Positions 12,943 through 63,641 of a DNA stretch of 64,000 nt are shown here, one piece after another. The notes under the pieces were generated by a model. The model saw only the letters and a list, made by a program, of their open reading frames with translations. It searched no databases and was not told the origin of the DNA. The stretch is from the NCBI GenBank assembly GCA_017999895.1, contig JAGNKY010000001.1, forward strand, positions 218,715-282,714, given 5' to 3'. The DNA comes from Bacteroidales bacterium (GTDB lineage: Bacteria > Bacteroidota > Bacteroidia > Bacteroidales > VadinHA17). How positions within the stretch are numbered: the stretch's first letter is position 1; every line of letters starts with the position of its first letter. A program made the position numbers and the translations under genes.

Positions 12943-13092
12943 CTATTCATTATTCGACATTCCTTGTTCGACATTCAATATTCGGTCTTTCTTTTTAGGT
13001 ATTCTTCATTCGACGTTCCTTGTTCGATCTTCGTTTAACGTTATCGTTTATAGGTAAAATGTGACTGTATAATTTTTTACCCTGCCTGTTGC

Positions 13093-47292: not shown

Positions 47293-47383
47293 GGCAGAGG
47301 GCATAGGGCTGAGAGCAAAGGGTAAAATTATACTGCAATCCACGCTATTCTCCTCGTTCTTAGCTCTTTGCTCTCAGCCCTTT
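47293..47383. repeat. heptanucleotide-array hairpin element, copy A
   Basis: GGCAGAG GGCATAG GGCTGAG AGCAAAG, a 28-nt spacer, then TCTCCTC GTTCTTA GCTCTTT GCTCTCA GCCCTTT. It contains a perfect 15-bp inverted repeat (47306-47320 / 47366-47380). Confidence 0.8.
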
Positions 47384-47435
47384 ATAAAGAGAGGAGGTAA
47401 GCCTATGTGCAGATAATACTATTCCGTGACTTCGG

Positions 47436-47455
47436 TTGCGGCCTGTGAAAGGATA
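47436..47455 (+). promoter_or_regulatory. conserved cassette box 1 (TTGCGGCCTGTGAAAGGATA)
   Basis: The 20-mer occurs 4 times in the window, always 47-48 nt upstream of a precursor-peptide ATG. Confidence 0.6.
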
Positions 47456-47503
47456 CAGCAGGAAAAAGTAAAAAATAAATTGTTTAACTAAAAACATAAA
47501 ATT

Positions 47504-47761
47504 ATGAAAAAATTAAGTAAATTGCAGATTAATCCGGAAAGAATTATGAAGAATGAAGAACTGAAAATTCTGAGAGGTGGAGATTATGACTCTGGTTGTG
47601 GGAATTATACAGAGTGGTTTTGTGATGTGCATTACGATGGAGTTTATGCTTTTTCAGGCATAGCCTGTGGCACACAAGAATATATTTCTGGTGTCTGTCA
47701 ACAACTAAATTATGAATGTTCTTGTACACAAACATGGACTCCCATGCCTATCATTAATTAG
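47504..47761 (+). CDS. double-glycine-leader Cys-rich peptide precursor P1 (26-aa leader + 59-aa core, 6 Cys)
   Basis: The leader MKKLSKLQINPERIMKNEELKILRGG is conserved with three paralogues. The core has 6 Cys and ends in an NYECSC motif. The gene sits immediately upstream of the propeller/C39-ABC/HlyD genes. Confidence 0.85.
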   Translation: MKKLSKLQINPERIMKNEELKILRGGDYDSGCGNYTEWFCDVHYDGVYAFSGIACGTQEYISGVCQQLNYECSCTQTWTPMPIIN

Positions 47762-49181: not shown

Positions 49182-51479
49182 ATGTCCGAATTTCCTTTCT
49201 TCAAGCAGCTCGATTCCATGGATTGCGGTCCGACGTGTCTGCGCATGATAGCCAGGTTTTACGGGAAATCATATTCATTACAATATCTGCGTTCAAGGTC
49301 ATTTCTTACAAAAGCGGGTGTTTCGATGCTTGGCATCAGTGAGGCAGCCGAGAGCATCGGTTTCCGCACCCGCGGCTACCGCCTCACCTGGGAACAACTA
49401 CGTGACGAGGTACCACTCCCATGTATTGTTCACTGGAGTCAAAGGCATTTTGTCGTAGTGTACAATATCGAGAAGAAGAAGAAAGCTTGGGGCTTGGGGC
49501 GGAGGGCGGAGGGCAGAGTGCGGAGAGCAAAGGATATGGAGCAGGGAGCAAGAGGCGAAGAGCGCAGAGCATACAATTCAGAAACCATAGTTTATGTTGC
49601 CGATCCTGCCTCCGGTCTTCTTAAATACACCAGAGATGAGTTCCTTAAATGCTGGTATAGTACGAAAACCGATGGTGTTCAGGAAGGCGCCGCACTGTTG
49701 CTGGAGCCGTCACCTGATTTCTACCGCCAGGAAGACGAAGAAAAGGGTAAACTTAAATTCACATATCTGCTTGGTTATATAAAGCCTTACAAAAAGTTCA
49801 TCCTGCAGCTTATGCTTGGAATGCTCACCGCAAGCATAATCAGCCTTATATTTCCTTTTCTTACACAATCTCTTGTTGATACCGGTATCGGAAACAGCAA
49901 CATTGCATTTGTCATTCTGGTTCTTGTCGCCCAGTTGATACTTAGTCTCAGCCAGACAGCCAACGGACTGCTGCGTAACTGGATAAGCCTACACGTCACA
50001 AGCAGGATAAGCATCTCCCTTATATCTGATTTTCTAATTAAACTGATGAGACTTCCTATTTCGTTCTTCGATACAAAAATGATCGGAGATATAATGCAAA
50101 GAATAGGCGACCATAACCGCATAAAAACATTCCTTACCGATTCTCTTATCAGTATAATATTTGCCGTTATTACTCTAGTTATGTACACCATTATTATGGC
50201 TACATATAACCTTGCGATACTCGGAGTCTTTCTTGTCGGCAGTGCCTTATACATAGGCTGGGTCGTTCTTTTTCTCAAACGCCGCCGCGAACTCGATTAC
50301 AAGCGTTTTCAGCAAAGCGCGGCTAACCAGAGCAACATAGTACAGCTTATTACAGGGATGCAGGAGATAAAGCTTAACAACTGTGAGAAACAAAAACGGT
50401 GGGAATGGGAAAGGATACAGATAAAGCTCTTTAAGGTAAGCTTAAAGAGTATGATGCTTAACCAGAATCAGCAGCTCGGAGCAGTTTTGATAAACCAGAC
50501 GAAAGATATCTTTATTTCCTTCCTCTCGGCTATGGCTGTCATTCGCGGCGAGATGACCCTTGGTATGATGATGGCCGTTCAGTATATAATAGGTCAGCTC
50601 AATGCACCGATACAACAATTCATCGGTTTTACTCAGGCGGCTCAGGATGCAAGGATAAGCCTCGAGCGGCTTGGCGAGATACACAACCGTGAGGATGAGG
50701 AGAAGCCGGAAGACTATAAGATAAGAGACATTCCTGTAGATAAAGATATAGAGATAAAAAACCTTGTTTTTCAGTACGAAGGTCCTCATTCTGAAAAAGT
50801 ACTGGATGACATTTCGTTGGTTATTCCGGCAAAAGGTGTAACAGCTATTGTTGGAACAAGTGGAAGCGGTAAAACAACACTTATAAAGTTGCTGCTTGGG
50901 TTTTATGCTCCCGTGAAAGGGGGAATCTATCTGAACGGGACTCCTCTCAACCGGTTCAGCCAGAGTGAGTGGCGCAAAAGGTGCGGTGTTGTAATGCAGG
51001 AAGGATTCATCTTTTCCGATACTATTGCCGGAAACATAGGACTGATAGATGAAATTCCCGACAGGGAAAAGATAGACAAGGCATCCGATACGGCTAACAT
51101 CAAAGATTTTATCGAGGGCCTGCCGCTTGGGTATAATACCAGAATCGGCAATGACGGACATGGTCTGAGTACAGGTCAGAAACAAAGGATACTGATTGCC
51201 CGGGCAGTTTATAAAGAGCCTGATTTTATCTTTTTTGATGAGGCAACCAACGCTCTTGATGCAAAAAACGAAAAGACAATTATGGACAATCTGGGCAGCT
51301 TTTTTGAGGGTAAAACGGTTGTGATTGTTGCACACCGTTTGAGCACTGTAAAGAATGCCGATCAGATAGTGGTTCTCGAAAAAGGCAAGATAGTGGAGAA
51401 AGGAACGCATAATGAACTTGTTAAGATGAAAGGGGCGTATTATAACCTTGTGAAAGATCAGCTGGAACTGGGGAATTGA
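49182..51479 (+). CDS. peptidase-C39 domain ABC transporter (bacteriocin-type exporter) carrying an in-frame repeat insertion
   Basis: 765 aa. C39 triad context (QLDSMDCGPTC, HWSQRHFVVV, VADPASG), 6 TM helices, Walker A GTSGSGKTT, signature LSTGQKQR, Walker B IFFDEAT. Confidence 0.92.
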   Translation: MSEFPFFKQLDSMDCGPTCLRMIARFYGKSYSLQYLRSRSFLTKAGVSMLGISEAAESIGFRTRGYRLTWEQLRDEVPLPCIVHWSQRHFVVVYNIEKKKKAWGLGRRAEGRVRRAKDMEQGARGEERRAYNSETIVYVADPASGLLKYTRDEFLKCWYSTKTDGVQEGAALLLEPSPDFYRQEDEEKGKLKFTYLLGYIKPYKKFILQLMLGMLTASIISLIFPFLTQSLVDTGIGNSNIAFVILVLVAQLILSLSQTANGLLRNWISLHVTSRISISLISDFLIKLMRLPISFFDTKMIGDIMQRIGDHNRIKTFLTDSLISIIFAVITLVMYTIIMATYNLAILGVFLVGSALYIGWVVLFLKRRRELDYKRFQQSAANQSNIVQLITGMQEIKLNNCEKQKRWEWERIQIKLFKVSLKSMMLNQNQQLGAVLINQTKDIFISFLSAMAVIRGEMTLGMMMAVQYIIGQLNAPIQQFIGFTQAAQDARISLERLGEIHNREDEEKPEDYKIRDIPVDKDIEIKNLVFQYEGPHSEKVLDDISLVIPAKGVTAIVGTSGSGKTTLIKLLLGFYAPVKGGIYLNGTPLNRFSQSEWRKRCGVVMQEGFIFSDTIAGNIGLIDEIPDREKIDKASDTANIKDFIEGLPLGYNTRIGNDGHGLSTGQKQRILIARAVYKEPDFIFFDEATNALDAKNEKTIMDNLGSFFEGKTVVIVAHRLSTVKNADQIVVLEKGKIVEKGTHNELVKMKGAYYNLVKDQLELGN
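49485..49575 (+). repeat. 13-unit heptanucleotide array embedded in frame in the C39 domain
   Basis: GCTTGGG GCTTGGG GCGGAGG GCGGAGG GCAGAGT GCGGAGA GCAAAGG ATATGGA GCAGGGA GCAAGAG GCGAAGA GCGCAGA GCATACA. It encodes AWGLGRRAEGRVRRAKDMEQGARGEERRAY between the catalytic His and Asp. Confidence 0.85.
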
Positions 51480-51573
51480 TGCTTTTGCCTCTCCCGGCAC
51501 TCCCAAAATGGGGAGGTGTAGCGTGGTATAAGAGAAATAAGCCCCCCATTTTTGGGGGTTGGGGGGCAAAATA

Positions 51574-52899: not shown

Positions 52900-52935
52900 G
52901 AAATTATTAAATTTTGCTGTGTTCAAAACGCCTTA

Positions 52936-52995
52936 TGTCCGGTTTTGACCGATATTGTCCGATATTGTCCGATTTTGACCGAAAATTACCGAAAA
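52936..52995. repeat. six tandem degenerate 10-bp repeats (TKWCCGRWWW)
   Basis: TGTCCGGTTT TGACCGATAT TGTCCGATAT TGTCCGATTT TGACCGAAAA TTACCGAAAA, starting 37 nt after the hlyD stop. Confidence 0.8.
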
Positions 52996-53089
52996 TTTCC
53001 CATTATTTTTTGTTGTTATTTGAAACTATTTGCTTAACTTTTTATCCGTTAGCTGTTAAAAGGTTATAGTGAAACATCAATGATAATAG

Positions 53090-53386
53090 GGAACGGATAT
53101 AAGGTTTTCGAGAGTTGACGAACGTCTTAAGCGTATTGCAAATGTTCTGCTCATTAATGCCAGTTTTACCGACAACCTTGGACTATTATACGGTAAAATG
53201 GGGATCGCGATATTTTTATATCAATATAATTTTGAATATAATAGAAAGGCAAGGTCAGAAATATTGGCAGAGGGCATAGGGCTGAGAGCAAAGGGCAAAA
53301 TTATACTGCAATCAACACTGTTCTCCTCGTTCTTTGCCCTCCGTTCTTTGCCCTTAGCCTTCAGCCACTTAACAGAGAGGAGGTAA
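53090..53386 (+). pseudogene. start-less open frame: LanC-like N-terminal fragment fused in frame to heptad element copy B
   Basis: After a TGA TAA TAG triple stop, the frame reads ...RLKRIANVLLINASFTDNLGLLYGKMGIAIFLYQYN... This GLL-G-K-x-GIA-hydrophobic pattern resembles the first helical repeat of LanC-like cyclases. The frame then runs through the repeat. Confidence 0.3.
53266..53370. repeat. heptanucleotide-array hairpin element, copy B
   Basis: The left arm is identical to copy A. The right arm is TCTCCTC GTTCTTT GCCCTCC GTTCTTT GCCCTTA GCCTTCA GCCACTT. About 190 nt (53253-53441) are homologous to 47282-47455. Confidence 0.8.
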
Positions 53387-53421
53387 GCCTATGTGCAGAT
53401 AATACTATCCCGTGCCTTCTG

Positions 53422-53441
53422 TTGCGGCCTGTGAAAAGATA
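53422..53441 (+). promoter_or_regulatory. conserved cassette box 2 (TTGCGGCCTGTGAAAAGATA)
   Basis: 19/20 match to box 1, 47 nt upstream of the P2 ATG. Confidence 0.6.
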
Positions 53442-53488
53442 AAACAGGGAAGAATAAAAATAAATTATTTAACTAAAAATATAAAACT

Positions 53489-53716
53489 ATGAAAAAAATT
53501 GGTAAATTGCACATAAATCAGGATAAGATTATGAAGAATGAAGAACTTTTAGTACTTCAGGGAGGTTATGGAAGTGAGTGTGGTTTCTTGTGTTGTGTTT
53601 ATCTTGGTTCATCATTACTTTACTGCGGTGTCGGTTGTGGTGATAGTGCATTCGGAGCAGAAGCTAATTGTAATATGGAGTTCGGCCAATATGGATATAA
53701 CTGTAAATGCTGGTGA
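53489..53716 (+). CDS. double-glycine-leader Cys-rich peptide precursor P2 (26-aa leader + 49-aa core, 8 Cys)
   Basis: Leader MKKIGKLHINQDKIMKNEELLVLQGG. The core has 8 Cys and ends YNCKCW. Confidence 0.85.
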   Translation: MKKIGKLHINQDKIMKNEELLVLQGGYGSECGFLCCVYLGSSLLYCGVGCGDSAFGAEANCNMEFGQYGYNCKCW

Positions 53717-55071: not shown

Positions 55072-55110
55072 TAACCAATAGGTAATAGGAAAACAAGGTC
55101 AGGGATATTA

Positions 55111-55208
55111 GCGCAGAGGGTAGTGCATACGAAGCGAAGTAGAGTCCTGAGCATTGAGAGAGCTCAGAAATCAGAGTTATTCTTTGCCCTCAGCTCCCCT
55201 TTGCCCGC
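55111..55208. repeat. heptad element copy C, left part (interrupted by the IS)
   Basis: GCGCAGA GGGTAGT GCATACG AAGCGAA GTAGAGT ... TCTTTGC CCTCAGC TCCCCTT TGCCCGC. It ends at the IS256 target-site duplication. Confidence 0.7.
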
Positions 55209-56560
55209 GAGGGTGTTCAAAAAAGTGTGTCAAAGAGTAAGTAATAAAAAATAGATTTGACACATGGAAAATAAGGAACGAAAACGGACGCCTCGAATAG
55301 AGGAACTGATTCCTGACTCTGAGAGGCGGGAGCAGGTATTAAACAGGTTATACAAAGGGGAACCCATACTTGGGGATGGAGGCATATTTACAGAAATGCT
55401 TCAAGCCTTTGTCAATGCAGCCCTTGAAGGGGAGATGGATCATCATCTGAAAGGGGGAAAAGGTGGATGCCAGGGCAACAGGCGCAACGGTCATACGCAC
55501 AAGGTAGTAAGAAGCACAGCAGGTCCATTTGAAGTTCATACTCCCCGGGACCGGGATGGGGAACACGAACCCATTCTGATTAAGAAATGGGAAAGGGAAC
55601 TTGGGACCGGTCTGGATGATATCATACTGAGTTTATATGCACGAGGACAATCGGTTGAAGATGTTCGGTATCAGTTGCGCAGGTTGTATGGATTAGAAGT
55701 GAGCGCAGGAGCGATAAGTGCGGTTACCGACCGTGTCTGGAGCGAGATTACCCAATGGCAGGAAAGGCCTCTGTCACCATTACAGGTAATAGTTTACCTG
55801 GATGCAATTCATTACAAGGTAAGGGAATCAGGTCAGATTATCTCCAAGGCGATATATACGGTTTATGGGGTAGATGTAAATGGAGAGCGAGATGTACTTG
55901 GGCTTTATCTGAGCGACAATGAAGGCTCGCGACAATGGGGTCTCATCCTTGAAGATATCAAGCGCAGAGGAGTGGATGATGTCTTATTCTTTTGTGTAGA
56001 TGGGCTTAAGGGGTTCAAAGAGGTGATTGAACAGGTATATCCTGAATCGATCCTGCAGCGCTGTATTGTTCATATGGTGCGAACATCGACACGGTTTGTA
56101 AGTGACAAAGATATTAAGGCAGTGTGTTCAGATCTGCGCAAAATTTACTCTTCAGCAGACAGGCAGCATGCGGAAATTGCCATGGAAGCCTTTGGTGAAA
56201 AATGGGGCAAATACCCTGAGATAAAGCCAAAATGGGAAGAGAACTGGGAAGAGTTGATGGCATTTATGGATTATAGCTCCAATATCCGCAGGATGATTTA
56301 TACGACCAATCCAGTAGAAGCTCTTCACCGAATTATGCGCAAGGTCACAAAAACAAAAGGAGCATGGATCAATGACAAGGGATTATTAAAACAGCTATAT
56401 TTAGCACTTAAGTACAACGAAAAAAGCTGGAAACGTAAAGCCTTCAACTGGCTTCCGATCCATAGAGAGCTCATTGAAAAGTTTGGAGACAGGTATGCAA
56501 AATTTGTTGTCCAATAAGTTTACCCGAAAAAGAAAATGACACACTTTTTTGAACATACCC
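55209..56560 (+). mobile_element. intact IS256-family insertion sequence (1352 bp)
   Basis: Terminal inverted repeats GAGGGTGTTCAAAAAAGTGTGTCA (left) and TGACACACTTTTTTGAACATACCC (right), with 19 bp perfect. Flanked by the 8-bp direct repeat TTGCCCGC (55201-55208 and 56561-56568). Confidence 0.9.
55264..56517 (+). CDS. IS256-family (mutator-type) transposase
   Basis: 417 aa and full length. DAIHYKV...CVDGLKGF...IVHMVR...IYTTNPVEALH are typical of Transposase_mut. Confidence 0.93.
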   Translation: MENKERKRTPRIEELIPDSERREQVLNRLYKGEPILGDGGIFTEMLQAFVNAALEGEMDHHLKGGKGGCQGNRRNGHTHKVVRSTAGPFEVHTPRDRDGEHEPILIKKWERELGTGLDDIILSLYARGQSVEDVRYQLRRLYGLEVSAGAISAVTDRVWSEITQWQERPLSPLQVIVYLDAIHYKVRESGQIISKAIYTVYGVDVNGERDVLGLYLSDNEGSRQWGLILEDIKRRGVDDVLFFCVDGLKGFKEVIEQVYPESILQRCIVHMVRTSTRFVSDKDIKAVCSDLRKIYSSADRQHAEIAMEAFGEKWGKYPEIKPKWEENWEELMAFMDYSSNIRRMIYTTNPVEALHRIMRKVTKTKGAWINDKGLLKQLYLALKYNEKSWKRKAFNWLPIHRELIEKFGDRYAKFVVQ

Positions 56561-56763
56561 TTGCCCGCCGTATCCGCCGGCTGGCAGAGAAGGCGGGTGC
56601 CCTCTGCCCTGCGCTCCTTGCTCTCCCGAATCTCGGGACTGCGTCGCTTCGCTCCTTGTGTGCTCTGTGCCAATCTTTCGCAGTCTTTCAATCAGCTACA
56701 GCTTGCAAAGCTTCCGCCTCTTTCCTTCTGCCTATCGCCTTTCGCCTTCTTCCCTGACTTCGG
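56561..56763. repeat. heptad element copy C, right part
   Basis: C/T-rich heptads (TCTGCCC TGCGCTC CTTGCTC ... TGCCTAT CGCCTTT CGCCTTC TTCCCTG). A ~48-nt core (56663-56710) is shared with copy D. Confidence 0.75.
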
Positions 56764-56783
56764 TTGCGGCCTGTGAAAGGATA
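56764..56783 (+). promoter_or_regulatory. conserved cassette box 3 (TTGCGGCCTGTGAAAGGATA)
   Basis: Identical to box 1, 47 nt upstream of the ATG at 56831. Confidence 0.6.
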
Positions 56784-56830
56784 AATCAGGAAAACTGAAT
56801 AAAATTTATTAATTTTAAAAAATAATGGTT

Positions 56831-57073
56831 ATGAAAACACTTGGAAAATTAAAAATCAATCAGGGGAAAATTATTAAAAATGAGGAGCTGGTACAGATAA
56901 GAGGAGGTTATTCTTACTTTATCTGTCATGCTATATGTAGTGGTGGTTTGGATGACTATATCGGTTTCTCATCTACTTGTGATGAAATGGATTGGCAATG
57001 CGCAAGGGGACAATGTATTGAATTTTACAATCAGGTTTTTTATAATTGTGAGTGCGCTTGCGTCAATGGTTAA
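56831..57073 (+). CDS. double-glycine-leader Cys-rich peptide precursor P3 (26-aa leader + 54-aa core, 8 Cys)
   Basis: Leader MKTLGKLKINQGKIIKNEELVQIRGG. The second ATG is preferred over the ORF-track 56825 because it gives the same 26-aa leader and the same 47-nt box spacing as P1 and P2. The core ends YNCECACVNG. Confidence 0.85.
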   Translation: MKTLGKLKINQGKIIKNEELVQIRGGYSYFICHAICSGGLDDYIGFSSTCDEMDWQCARGQCIEFYNQVFYNCECACVNG

Positions 57074-57279: not shown

Positions 57280-58617
57280 ATGTTAAATTTATTTACTAAT
57301 CAATTAAATATAATTAATAAATTAATTTTCCCAATCTGTCTGATTGTCTTATTAATAGCGTCACGCTGCTTATCAAAAAGGCCGATAAATATATTACCGC
57401 TTATTGATATAGAAGCAAATATAAATAATATGCAGAAAGTTTATCTCAGTGAATTTACCGATAATATATGGTATGTTCCTCTTGAAAGTAATCCAGACTT
57501 TTTATTATACTGGACTTATAATAACTTATCGGATTTCTCCGAAAACTATATTTTGTATTCTGATGGAAAGATGTGCCTTCTATATGATAATGAGGGACGA
57601 TTTATCCGACCAATTGGCAAACAGGGCAGAGGTCCGGGAGAATATATAGGAATAGATTATATAGCATTGATAAATGAAAAAATATTTATACATGACTATT
57701 TTACCGATGATCTATTAGAATATAATATTGATGGAACTTTTATAAACCGTAACAAGAGTGGTTTTACTGGACATGACAAATACCGTCTGAGAGATGCAAT
57801 TATGATAAATGATTCAATGATTTTCGGAAATATTCAAAACTATACAGGTCATGAAGAATATAAGGCTTTGATTGTTGATAAAAAGGGGAACATTAAATAT
57901 CCTTATAAAAACTATATTTTCTTTGACTTAAAACCTGGTGTGCCACATGCTCAGGAAATGGGGGAGGGTGCAATATTCTCCAGATTTGGAGAAATAATTT
58001 ACTTTAAAGAACCATTTAATGATACCTTATTCCAGATTGATAATCAATTTCGACTTATACCTTTTTATATTTTTAACTTTGGTAAATACAAGTTTCCACT
58101 ATCAGAAAGGGGTAAAGCCTGGGCCGATATAGATCTTTCTTCATATATTTTTTTGAATGAAATTTTTCAGACAAAAAACTATTTATTTGTTTCATGTAGA
58201 TTAGGTAAGTATTTTCCAGCAAAAAGAATAACGCCTGAAATAATACGTACACCGAGTAATAAAGATTATATCCAATGGTATAACACACAATCGGTATTAG
58301 GTATTTTTGATGAGAGAAAAGGAGATATTGTTTTCTCTGAGCCTACCAGTACAAACAATCACTTATTTACATCAGGGATTTACAATGATATTGATGCAGG
58401 ACCAAGATTTTTCCCCGATAAGATGGTAAATGATTCAACTATGATGATGAAAATCAAATTTGACTATCTTGTAGAACATATTGAAAGCAATGATTTTAAA
58501 TATAATATTCCGAAATATCCTGAAAGAAAGAAAAAACTTGAAATGCTTGTAGATAGTCTGAAAAAGGTTGAATTTGATAATCCTGTATATATGTTTGTAA
58601 CCTTTAAGTCTAAATGA
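57280..58617 (+). CDS. exported six-bladed beta-propeller protein, paralogue 4
   Basis: 445 aa. TM/signal with Cys (IASRC), GRGPGEY, NDIDAGPRFFP, tail DNPVYMFVTFKSK. Confidence 0.85.
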   Translation: MLNLFTNQLNIINKLIFPICLIVLLIASRCLSKRPINILPLIDIEANINNMQKVYLSEFTDNIWYVPLESNPDFLLYWTYNNLSDFSENYILYSDGKMCLLYDNEGRFIRPIGKQGRGPGEYIGIDYIALINEKIFIHDYFTDDLLEYNIDGTFINRNKSGFTGHDKYRLRDAIMINDSMIFGNIQNYTGHEEYKALIVDKKGNIKYPYKNYIFFDLKPGVPHAQEMGEGAIFSRFGEIIYFKEPFNDTLFQIDNQFRLIPFYIFNFGKYKFPLSERGKAWADIDLSSYIFLNEIFQTKNYLFVSCRLGKYFPAKRITPEIIRTPSNKDYIQWYNTQSVLGIFDERKGDIVFSEPTSTNNHLFTSGIYNDIDAGPRFFPDKMVNDSTMMMKIKFDYLVEHIESNDFKYNIPKYPERKKKLEMLVDSLKKVEFDNPVYMFVTFKSK

Positions 58618-58660
58618 AATTCCCTTTCTTCAAGCAGCTCGATTCCATGGATTGCGGCAA
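58614..58660 (+). pseudogene. orphan 5' end (15 codons) of a C39-ABC transporter gene
   Basis: ATGAAATTCCCTTTCTTCAAGCAGCTCGATTCCATGGATTGCGG encodes MKFPFFKQLDSMDCG. Positions 58623-58657 are 35/35 identical to 49194-49228. It overlaps the propeller stop, as the intact gene does, then runs directly into heptad element D. Confidence 0.8.
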
Positions 58661-58828
58661 GACCTTTCTCTGCCAATCCTTCGCTGTCTTTCAGCCAGCT
58701 AAGGCTTACAAAGTCTGAGCTCTGTGCTCCTTGCCCTCAGCCCTTCGCCCTGTGCCCTGCGCTCTGTGCTTCGTGCCTCACGCCTCTCGCGTCACGCCTC
58801 ATGCCTCACACCTTTTCCGTGCCTCCGA
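58661..58828. repeat. heptad element copy D (13 consecutive NNGCYCT units at 58717-58807)
   Basis: GAGCTCT GTGCTCC TTGCCCT CAGCCCT TCGCCCT GTGCCCT GCGCTCT GTGCTTC GTGCCTC ACGCCTC TCGCGTC ACGCCTC ATGCCTC, preceded by the core shared with copy C (58668-58713). Confidence 0.85.
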
Positions 58829-58848
58829 TTGCGGCCTGTGAAAGGATA
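58829..58848 (+). promoter_or_regulatory. conserved cassette box 4 (TTGCGGCCTGTGAAAGGATA)
   Basis: Identical to boxes 1 and 3, 47 nt upstream of the ATG at 58896. Positions 58829-58926 match 56764-56861 at 97 of 98 nt. Confidence 0.6.
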
Positions 58849-58895
58849 AATCTGGAAAACTGAATAAAATTTATTAATTTTAAAAAATAATGGTT

Positions 58896-59126
58896 ATGAA
58901 AACACTTGGAAAATTAAAAATCAATCCTGAAAAGTTGATGAAAAATGAGGAATTAATGACATTGAGAGGGGGATATAGCGGTGGTATAGTATTATGGTGT
59001 TTAGCTGTTGGGCCTACTTGTGTTCTACATAATATGCCCGGAAATTGTGATTGGGTATATAATGACACCATTTGTAGAATTGAATGTCCTAATTATATAG
59101 GAGTTTATTACTGTTTTTCAGAATAG
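58896..59126 (+). CDS. double-glycine-leader Cys-rich peptide precursor P4 (26-aa leader + 50-aa core, 6 Cys)
   Basis: Leader MKTLGKLKINPEKLMKNEELMTLRGG (second ATG preferred). The core has 6 Cys. Confidence 0.85.
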   Translation: MKTLGKLKINPEKLMKNEELMTLRGGYSGGIVLWCLAVGPTCVLHNMPGNCDWVYNDTICRIECPNYIGVYYCFSE

Positions 59127-59147
59127 GAGTTGATTTAAGATTAATTT

Positions 59148-59176
59148 AAAGAAGGGGGACTTCAACTCCCTTCTTT
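59148..59176 (+). terminator. hairpin between P4 and propeller 5 (possible partial terminator/attenuator)
   Basis: AAAGAAGGG-N11-CCCTTCTTT followed by AATTTT, 22 nt after the P4 stop. Confidence 0.45.
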
Positions 59177-59188
59177 AATTTTGATAAG

Positions 59189-63555: not shown

Positions 63556-63588
63556 TGAAGAATAATTTGAAGATGAGGAGAATGGGAA

Positions 63589-63641
63589 ATGACTACTGAA
63601 TGACTACTGAATGACCATTGAATGACCATTGAATGACATTC
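63589..63641. repeat. 11-bp tandem repeat, about 4.8 copies (ATGACYAYTGA)
   Basis: ATGACTACTGA ATGACTACTGA ATGACCATTGA ATGACCATTGA ATGACATTC, in the E2-E1 intergenic spacer. Confidence 0.85.

Follow-up and report, generated by a model that had tools for sequence, protein, structure and literature searches.

Why does an AT-rich stretch of bacterial DNA (GC about 30-43%) carry runs of GC-rich heptanucleotides with a GC dinucleotide in fixed phase, and what kind of element do these runs represent? The runs were found in a 64,000-nucleotide stretch of Bacteroidales DNA, called the window throughout, in which a Bacteroidales peptide-export cluster occupies 44-62 kb. This cluster contains six DUF5128 six-bladed propellers, a VKOR-thioredoxin gene, a C39-peptidase ABC transporter (49182-51479), an HlyD-type gene, an IS256-family transposase, and four small Cys-rich peptide genes with GG-type leaders. 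The window contains no rRNA (the Rfam search returned a tRNA only), and the arrays lie between or inside protein-coding genes. The reading that we favor, with a probability of roughly 55%, is that the arrays are the arms of repeat-built stem-loops resembling the intervening sequences (IVS) of 23S rRNA, and that they belong to a wider class located at co-oriented gene junctions, the full-length members of which carry a TIGR02436/PF05635 gene in the loop.

Heptad arrays in the peptide-export cluster

The initial annotation of this DNA described 7-nt units with an invariant GC in fixed phase, and this was borne out, as GC chains at exact 7-nt spacing were far above those of shuffled windows, which gave 0.16 chains of at least 4 units. 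The observed chains comprise 13 units at 58719-58804 and 7+5 units at 49485-49570, with shorter ones of 5 units (53267-53296) and 4 units (47294-47316 and 56599-56621). The pattern GCNNRRN x4 has 18 matches in the window, every one of them within 47-59 kb and none in the remaining 47 kb; shuffles gave 0. The periodicity also withstood autocorrelation, the test named in that annotation, with peaks at lags 7, 14, and 21. Base identity at lag 7 was 0.72 in copy D (z 8.9), 0.65 in the array within the ABC gene (z 7.0), 0.51 in copy A (z 5.6), and 0.50 in copy B (z 5.7). Copy C is weakly periodic, with an identity of 0.38 (z 3.1) at 55111-55208 and of 0.36 (z 2.3) at 56561-56763, the latter being non-significant after considering all lags. 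The related arrays listed in that annotation are accordingly strong at 47293-47383, 53266-53370, and 49485-49575 and weak at the two copy C segments. TRF assigned a period of 7 or 14 with 69-86% matches, i.e., a head-to-tail period-7 organization.

The features of the cluster that bear on the arrays are given below, with scores from R1, a covariance model of the peptide-gene leader that is described in the next section.

47294-47378, + strand: copy A, intact hairpin; fold -37.4 kcal/mol
47342-47472, + strand: leader of peptide gene A; R1 87.4 bits, E 6e-21, full length
47504-47761, + strand: GG-leader Cys-rich peptide gene A; TIGR04149-like leader, E 1e-5, 24.9 bits against a cutoff of 25
49485-49575, + strand: purine-rich heptad array, partnerless single arm, in frame within the C39 domain of the ABC ORF
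53265-53367, + strand: copy B, intact hairpin (purine arm, loop, pyrimidine arm); fold -46.1 kcal/mol
53322-53458, + strand: leader of peptide gene B; R1 81.5 bits, E 2e-19, full length
53489-53716, 56825-57073, and 58890-59126, + strand: sister peptide genes served by the leaders (ORF list)
55095-55208, + strand: left part of copy C, comprising P1 5' strand AAGGTCAGGGA, a purine arm of weak periodicity, and the beginning of the pyrimidine arm (spacer alignment)
55209-56560, + strand: IS256-family (Mutator-type) insertion sequence splitting copy C; Pfam Transposase_mut E 5e-90, inverted ends
56569-56800, + strand: right part of copy C, with pyrimidine-rich arms, the 48-nt core (56663-56710), P1 3' strand TCCCTGACTT, and the box
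56709-56800, + strand: partial leader C; R1 43.8 bits, E 1e-9, 3' part of the model only
58616-58670, + strand: 5'-end fragment (18 codons) of the ABC/C39 gene, replacing the 5' part of copy D
58668-58713, + strand: non-heptad core common to copies C and D; 39 identical positions
58714-58813, + strand: copy D, pyrimidine-rich single arm of at least 13 heptads; 5' partner lost
58814-58865, + strand: 3' part of leader D, with degenerate P3 and box; R1 44.5 bits, E 7e-10, match 58726-58865, 3' part only

Two features of this organization were missing from the initial annotation, namely that the arms are inverted and that the conserved box is half of a hairpin. Each purine-rich arm of a pair has its pyrimidine-rich complement next in line, so that the two fold into a hairpin; in copy A, the purine-rich heptads GGCAGAG GGCATAGG GCTGAG AGCAAAG... 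pair with ...CTCTTTG CTCTCAG CCC. The complementary arms fold better than shuffles in copies A and B and in the reconstructed copy C (z -2.05, -3.0, and -2.1, respectively). For the last of these, removal of the insertion sequence gave a fold of -121.8 kcal/mol in which the left and right parts pair over a long range. The insertion sequence is the sole transposase element of the cluster and has its own ends and an 8-bp target duplication (TTGCCCGC at 55201-55208 and 56561-56568) inside copy C. A sister-strain contig has an identical copy at its end (L121, 1-1353). Over copy B, a weak match to MIR529 (53259-53368) reflects the hairpin shape only.

The single arms are not structured by themselves (fold z +1.1 for copy D and -1.2 for the ABC array). 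The fragment that replaces the 5' part of copy D matches the ABC protein at 83% over 18 residues (tblastn), and 40 nt of it share 97.5% identity with 49189-49228. Among the matches listed, copy D is most closely related to L153, in which the array has 18 units, the 5' GTGCAGGGCACAG arm is kept, and no ABC-fragment sequence occurs in the ~210 nt upstream of the box. The core reported as shared by copies C and D was confirmed, with 39 positions identical in 46-48 nt, and in two relatives (L153 and L230) it is present twice with heptads between. A 9-bp direct repeat, GATTGCGGC, that flanks copy D (58651-58659 and 58828-58836) was considered as a target duplication and set aside as probably coincidence or microhomology, since its second copy is the leader P3 strand and L153, which lacks the ABC fragment in the stretch covered, has the same variant; the first copy lies in the ABC-fragment codons for DCG. 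Overall, the window holds two intact hairpins (A and B), one broken by the insertion sequence (C), and two single arms (D and the ABC array). All of them are ORF-less, and no four-helix-bundle gene occurs anywhere in the window.

Other repeats and duplications were observed in the window. Positions 52926-53250 are a partial, frameshifted duplicate of a LanC-like upstream region plus the first ~50 codons, cut off at array B; the intact LanC-like gene is found in contig L121 (2372-3466), with 94.6% identity over 292 nt. Within this segment, 52936-52997 carries direct 10-nt repeats of the TGTCCGAT(A/T)TT type, which recur both upstream of LanC-like genes and after pyrimidine arrays in relatives (L154, L182, and L214). 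At 12945-13027, between two minus-strand ORFs, lies an AT-rich tandem repeat with a period of 14/28 (ATTCATTATTCGAC / ATTCCTTGTTCGAC), whose sequence has no relation to that of the GC heptads, and an 11-nt tandem repeat (AATGACCACTG x4.5, 94% matches) lies at 63588-63637.

A covarying leader upstream of the peptide genes

The box TTGCGGCCTGTGAAAGG was reported as a conserved sequence into which the array runs in phase. It does occur four times, solely upstream of the four peptide genes, and the arrays adjoin it; the phase relation holds for copy D only, copies A, B, and C being out of phase. The box belongs to a conserved leader, in which it supplies the 3' half of P3, a hairpin that covaries; the repeat-built stem-loops lie on the 5' side of this leader. 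In leader A, the recognizable parts are a P2-like stem, the mini-ORF-like ATGTGCAGATAA at 47405-47416, P3 at 47424-47441, and a conserved CCTGTGAAAGGATA...CAGG; in leader B, they are the mini-ORF-like ATGTGCAGATAA at 53391-53402, P3 at 53410-53427, and the box.

Relatives' loci were reached via the protein-cluster representative P0001, exact look-ups of two window proteins having given no match. A metagenome scan with the CCTGTGAAAKGATAAATCAGG motif returned at least 119 loci and, among the matches listed, 84 distinct leaders. The features of the leader follow one another in a fixed order in related contigs: a GC-rich closing stem (GGGCAGGGG ... CCCCTGCCC) enclosing the heptads, a CCTTTC/GAAAGG hairpin, the conserved ATGCGAAGATAA, a hairpin with the 3' strand TTGCGG, and then CCTGTGAAAKGATAAATCAGG, which precedes the ATG by ~40 nt. 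The longest GC-phased heptad chain in these 84 leaders (among the matches listed) is typically 3-6 units, with some reaching 9-10 units and that of L153 reaching 18.

RNAalifold on a MAFFT alignment gave only the invariant CCTG/CAGG pairs; P2 and P3 were set by hand, and their pairs were then counted. P3 is 88-90% paired in 69 aligned leaders, with compensatory changes (UA 30, UG 18, and CG 12 at one pair; CG 51, UA 5, UG 3, and AU 1 at another), and the covariation score of P2 and P3 was attained by 0 of 500 shuffles. When R1 was built from the metagenome relatives alone, with the window left out, its search of the window gave exactly four matches, all on the + strand and corresponding to copies A-D. 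Neither gathering nor relaxed thresholds gave an Rfam family that matches the leader. Across Bacteroidales metagenomes, leaders of this type are widespread ahead of GG-leader peptide genes, and they are new relative to Rfam.

A 12-nt start-two-codons-stop motif, usually ATGCGAAGATAA (Met-Arg-Arg-stop), follows GGAGG in 72 of the 84 leaders among the matches listed. Shine-Dalgarno sequences are rarely used in the phylum Bacteroidota. Variants of the motif (relatives L125-L249) retain a start codon (GTG/TTG) and a stop (TAG), and this preservation of start and stop after GGAGG suggests that ATGCGAAGATAA/ATGTGCAGATAA is a candidate translated mini-ORF. A Bacteroides-type -7 box (TAnnTTTG) lies directly 5' of the leader in just 7 exact and 8 near instances among 51, too seldom for a claim about the transcription start. 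At the other end of the cassette, a hairpin after peptide gene D (59111-59180) gave a weak, sub-threshold match to the Bacteroidetes FopS sRNA family (28.6 bits against 56, E 0.64) and is probably merely a terminator-like stem.

Paired arms and four-helix-bundle genes in relatives

In related contigs, purine arrays begin at the stop codon of a DUF5128 or ABC gene or overlap with it, and pyrimidine arrays end a short way ahead of the following gene or leader. Along the direction of the genes, the purine arm precedes the pyrimidine arm in 14 cases and follows it in 0. The position of the array is kept at shared gene boundaries across species, with unit sequences that differ and unit lengths of 7, 9, or ~10 nt. 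No unit-number change was seen in the window's own arrays among four assemblies that are 99.6-99.97% identical; the polymorphism that had been proposed as a check was found in relatives, in steps of 7. There, (GCAGGGA)n with identical flanks has n = 6, 7, or 9, and L256 exceeds L250 by 35 nt (+5 units). Similar arrays lie between housekeeping genes in other Bacteroidota.

The arrays also enter coding sequence. Not every array is a spacer, as that at 49485-49575 is translated in frame. The Pfam C39 match of the window ABC protein ends at residue 100, and the array encodes a loop at about residues 100-135. Among ABC orthologues of 77-86% identity (113 alignable of 120 retrieved), this one site holds 24-94 residues, bounded by HFVVVY.IKK and V.VADPA. 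The content of the loop resembles translated 7-nt repeats (EHRAQST, GQGAGSG, EPCALSPEQ) or 9-nt repeats (HASRAS..., DLQDLHDLQ). At the DNA level, 7 of 13 distinct inserts show a lag-7 identity of 0.46-0.56 against about 0.3 at other lags, and some inserts, e.g., that of L127, hold both arms. Some loops carry GC-rich palindrome-like sequence (PFPKWGRAGDEV) instead of repeats. In-frame arrays were also found inside a urocanase (L007) and a glycyl-radical enzyme (L054).

Full-length counterparts were found at the junction between the ABC and HlyD genes, where a 120-residue PF05635/TIGR02436 four-helix-bundle gene lies in L129/L130, L177, L202, L186, and L263-L272, flanked 5' by a purine heptad arm and 3' by the complementary pyrimidine arm. 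In L127 and L219, this junction has both arms around a short loop and no gene. The corresponding junction in the window (51480-51565) is without heptads and carries small GC-rich palindromes instead (CTCCCAAAATGGGGAG; CCCCCCATTTTTGGGGG); in relatives, it has heptad hairpins with the four-helix-bundle gene present or absent. A second subfamily (34-39% identical) occurs at an RND-RND junction, flanked by the 9-nt repeats (GTCATGCAA)n and (GACCTGCAA)n, the same nonamers from which the HASRAS/DLQDLH inserts in the ABC loop are translated. The RND-RND junction of L127 (18480-18600) has a hairpin with arms of ~10-nt repeats of the ACGGAGT type; in other genomes, this junction has heptad or nonamer arms and a four-helix-bundle gene.

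Genes chosen by protein homology alone are likewise flanked by arms, at RND-RND (L250-259), Wza-Wzc (L260 and L261), and adhesin-PorP (L273) junctions. A second four-helix-bundle gene in L261 has AT-rich 8-9-mer arms, and one Lysobacterales gene also lies between complementary tandem-repeat arms. Altogether, 12 of 12 distinct TIGR02436 four-helix-bundle genes examined lie between complementary tandem-repeat arms, with arm-arm duplex z-scores of -3.9 to -10.7 (nine pairs tested) and three subfamilies above the TIGR02436 cutoff. Viewed from the side of the arrays, only 1 of 120 heptad-array loci sampled across phyla (L002, among the matches listed) has a four-helix-bundle gene within 4 kb. Identical four-helix-bundle proteins each occur in a single genomic context, which gives no indication of recent transposition. 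What these comparisons show of the arrays is pairing, polarity, a conserved position, fast evolution, and a link to TIGR02436 genes.

Explanations and comparison with known systems

How such stem-loops might arise and persist can be outlined as follows. The arrays may lengthen and shorten by replication slippage, and the complementarity of the arms may be maintained by a DNA-level process, e.g., template switching. Upkeep at the DNA level is favored because the RNA of the sense strand folds no better than that of the antisense strand: the sense fold was more stable in 8 of 22 comparisons (Wilcoxon p 0.08, opposite direction), and this lack of a sense-strand advantage means that there is no G.U signature of transcript-level selection. 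The stem-loops would be co-transcribed with their host genes, and their strict co-orientation could reflect a dependence on host transcription. By analogy with IVS, the stems may serve as RNase III-type processing or stability sites; alternatively, they may persist as selfish IVS-like passengers. Other observations that weigh against the favored reading are the missing four-helix-bundle gene in the window, the rarity of such genes near heptad arrays sampled across phyla, the partnerless arms of copy D and the ABC array, the single contexts of identical four-helix-bundle proteins, and the constant unit number of the window's arrays in near-identical strains. A bolder version, which we regard as tentative and rather doubtful, is that TIGR02436 (S23p/Avd-like) genes with repeat arms form a widespread undescribed class of mRNA-borne IVS-like elements, that the window arrays are ORF-less relics of it, and that the four-helix-bundle pentamer, or else RNase III, acts on the arms. 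Such elements would colonise co-transcribed gene junctions, 5' leaders, and protein loops.

Two functional suggestions of the initial annotation can be judged against this outline, and both agree with the findings. For a structured regulatory DNA or RNA, the complementary hairpin arms within a covarying leader speak in favor of the structure, and the regulatory role would be a presumed one. For a small non-autonomous element, the ORF-bearing hairpins with a TIGR02436 gene in relatives are in favor; the lack of a dedicated transposase in the cluster and of target duplications speaks against a mobile element in the strict sense.

The arrays could instead be punctuation beneficial to the host, i.e., intercistronic or 5'-UTR RNA structures selected for their effect on how the mRNAs of the peptide, transporter, and propeller genes are stabilized, processed, or translated, with the repeat build merely giving robustness to insertions and deletions. 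Their placement exactly at stop codons and ahead of starts of co-oriented genes, their embedding in a covarying-hairpin leader upstream of each peptide gene, and the conservation of position under sequence turnover are in favor of this. However, the sense strand has no folding advantage, and some leaders close P1 on non-repeat loops (L127 at 6797; L210, L219, and L248), so the heptads are dispensable in those leaders. Punctuation also leaves the four-helix-bundle genes in the loops and the in-frame ABC arm unexplained; we consider it unlikely.

It is distinctly improbable that the arrays are ordinary long simple sequence repeats (SSRs), generated by slippage in unconstrained sequence, functionless, without element identity, and decayed by point mutation. 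Heptanucleotides are described, in a passage of PMC4679880 that cites Mrazek 2007, as the commonest long SSR class in prokaryotes, with slippage as the proposed cause. Our scan of a genome collection with the 7-unit pattern matched many phyla, mostly as homogeneous 7-mer microsatellites among the matches listed; unit number changes in 7-nt steps, and the arrays occupy tolerant sites (spacers and a surface loop). Slippage of this kind does not account for complementary inverted pairs in a fixed order (14:0) with strong duplex z-scores, for recurrence at the same gene boundaries across species despite differing unit sequences and lengths, for arrays flanking every four-helix-bundle gene examined, or for their absence from the other 47 kb of the window. 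The earlier view that these are copies of an element rather than simple microsatellites is upheld by the complementary arms and the conserved leader setting.

Two further explanations are very improbable. In the first, the arrays would be G-quadruplex (G4) regulatory repeats comparable to the GGGNATC heptamers of Xanthomonas and Nostoc, which are G-rich, lie between co-oriented ORFs, and form G4 in vitro (PMC4692102); the "several" segments said to satisfy the G4 rule number just two in the whole window, the canonical (G3N4)x4 at 58734-58757 (the minus-strand segment originally described) and at 49489-49513 (+), so that the rule is satisfied by 2 of 6 arrays, which differ in strand with respect to transcription, while A, B, and C fail, many relatives' units lack G-runs (GCACAGA, GCTCAGA, and AT-rich 8-9-mers), and four units are not preferred in the leaders among the matches listed.

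In the second, equally improbable explanation, the arrays would shuffle peptide cassettes, either as substrates of recombination or as non-autonomous transposable elements of the MITE/REP type. The evidence for the recombination role that the initial annotation had proposed is circumstantial: gene fragments adjoin arrays (58616-58670 from the 5' end of an ABC gene and 53115-53250 from that of a LanC-like gene), an insertion sequence entered an array, the 3' arm of L254 is truncated and followed by different genes, and relatives' contigs often end at arrays (among the matches listed). Rearrangements at repeats may nevertheless be a by-product rather than a function, and identical four-helix-bundle elements stay in single contexts. 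No terminal inverted repeats with target duplications were seen around the arrays. The associated transposase that the initial annotation had proposed to look for, RAYT-like or other, was not found: the cluster ORFs scanned, all beyond 44 kb, have no RAYT or dedicated transposase, only the unrelated IS256-family element.

In practical terms, the arrays break metagenome assemblies, yield spurious small ORFs and extended gene ends, and place low-complexity stretches in conserved enzymes.

Several known systems share part of this architecture. The cis-regulatory leader RNAs of peptide and bacteriocin genes resemble the leader in that a multi-hairpin structure lies directly upstream of each precursor gene, here with compensatory changes in P3; they differ in that the present leader has no Rfam match and carries a conserved start-two-codons-stop motif. 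REP/BIME, Rickettsia palindromic elements (RPEs), and Correia-type MITEs are GC-rich hairpin-forming repeats at gene ends, and RPEs are tolerated in frame inside conserved proteins. Hairpins at gene ends and in-frame tolerance, in the ABC C39 loop, the urocanase, and the glycyl-radical enzyme, are found here too, but the present copies have a unit pattern only, with no consensus element sequence, and their arms are internally tandem-repetitive. Long heptanucleotide SSRs (cyanobacterial STRR, Xanthomonas/Nostoc GGGNATC, and Beggiatoaceae TAACTGA) share the period of 7, the co-oriented intergenic placement, the variable unit number, and the patchy phylogenetic distribution. In contrast, each unit of the present arrays keeps an invariant GC within a degenerate sequence (about 70% matches), and the arrays form complementary inverted pairs in a fixed order, tied to a leader and to four-helix-bundle genes.

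The closest known relative of the repeat-armed hairpins, and the closest architectural match, is the 23S rRNA IVS (Coxiella, Leptospira, Xanthomonas; PF05635, TIGR02436). S23p/four-helix-bundle proteins are relatives of the Avd proteins of diversity-generating retroelements. The IVS of Coxiella forms a stem-loop, the loop of which carries an S23p four-helix-bundle ORF, and is excised by RNase III; two or three tandem GACAGAT heptamers, varying in number among strains, lie 5' of the ORF, cleavage occurs at the first heptamer, and the origin and mobility of the element are unresolved (PMC4990558). Common to both systems are a stem of complementary arms, a TIGR02436 gene in the loop (here in relatives), tandem heptamers beside the ORF in strain-variable number (PMC4990558), and co-orientation with the host transcript, although dependence on host transcription is presumed in the present case. 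Our elements differ in their predicted mRNA settings (operon junctions, a 5' leader, and a coding loop) instead of 23S helices 25 or 45, in arms that are long degenerate tandem arrays rather than a unique 28-bp stem, and in the ORF-less state of the window copies. A limited full-text literature search gave no description of IVS-like repeat-armed elements outside rRNA. If this architecture is common at operon junctions, the question of the origin and purpose of the rRNA IVS and S23p, open since the 1990s, would become testable outside the ribosome.
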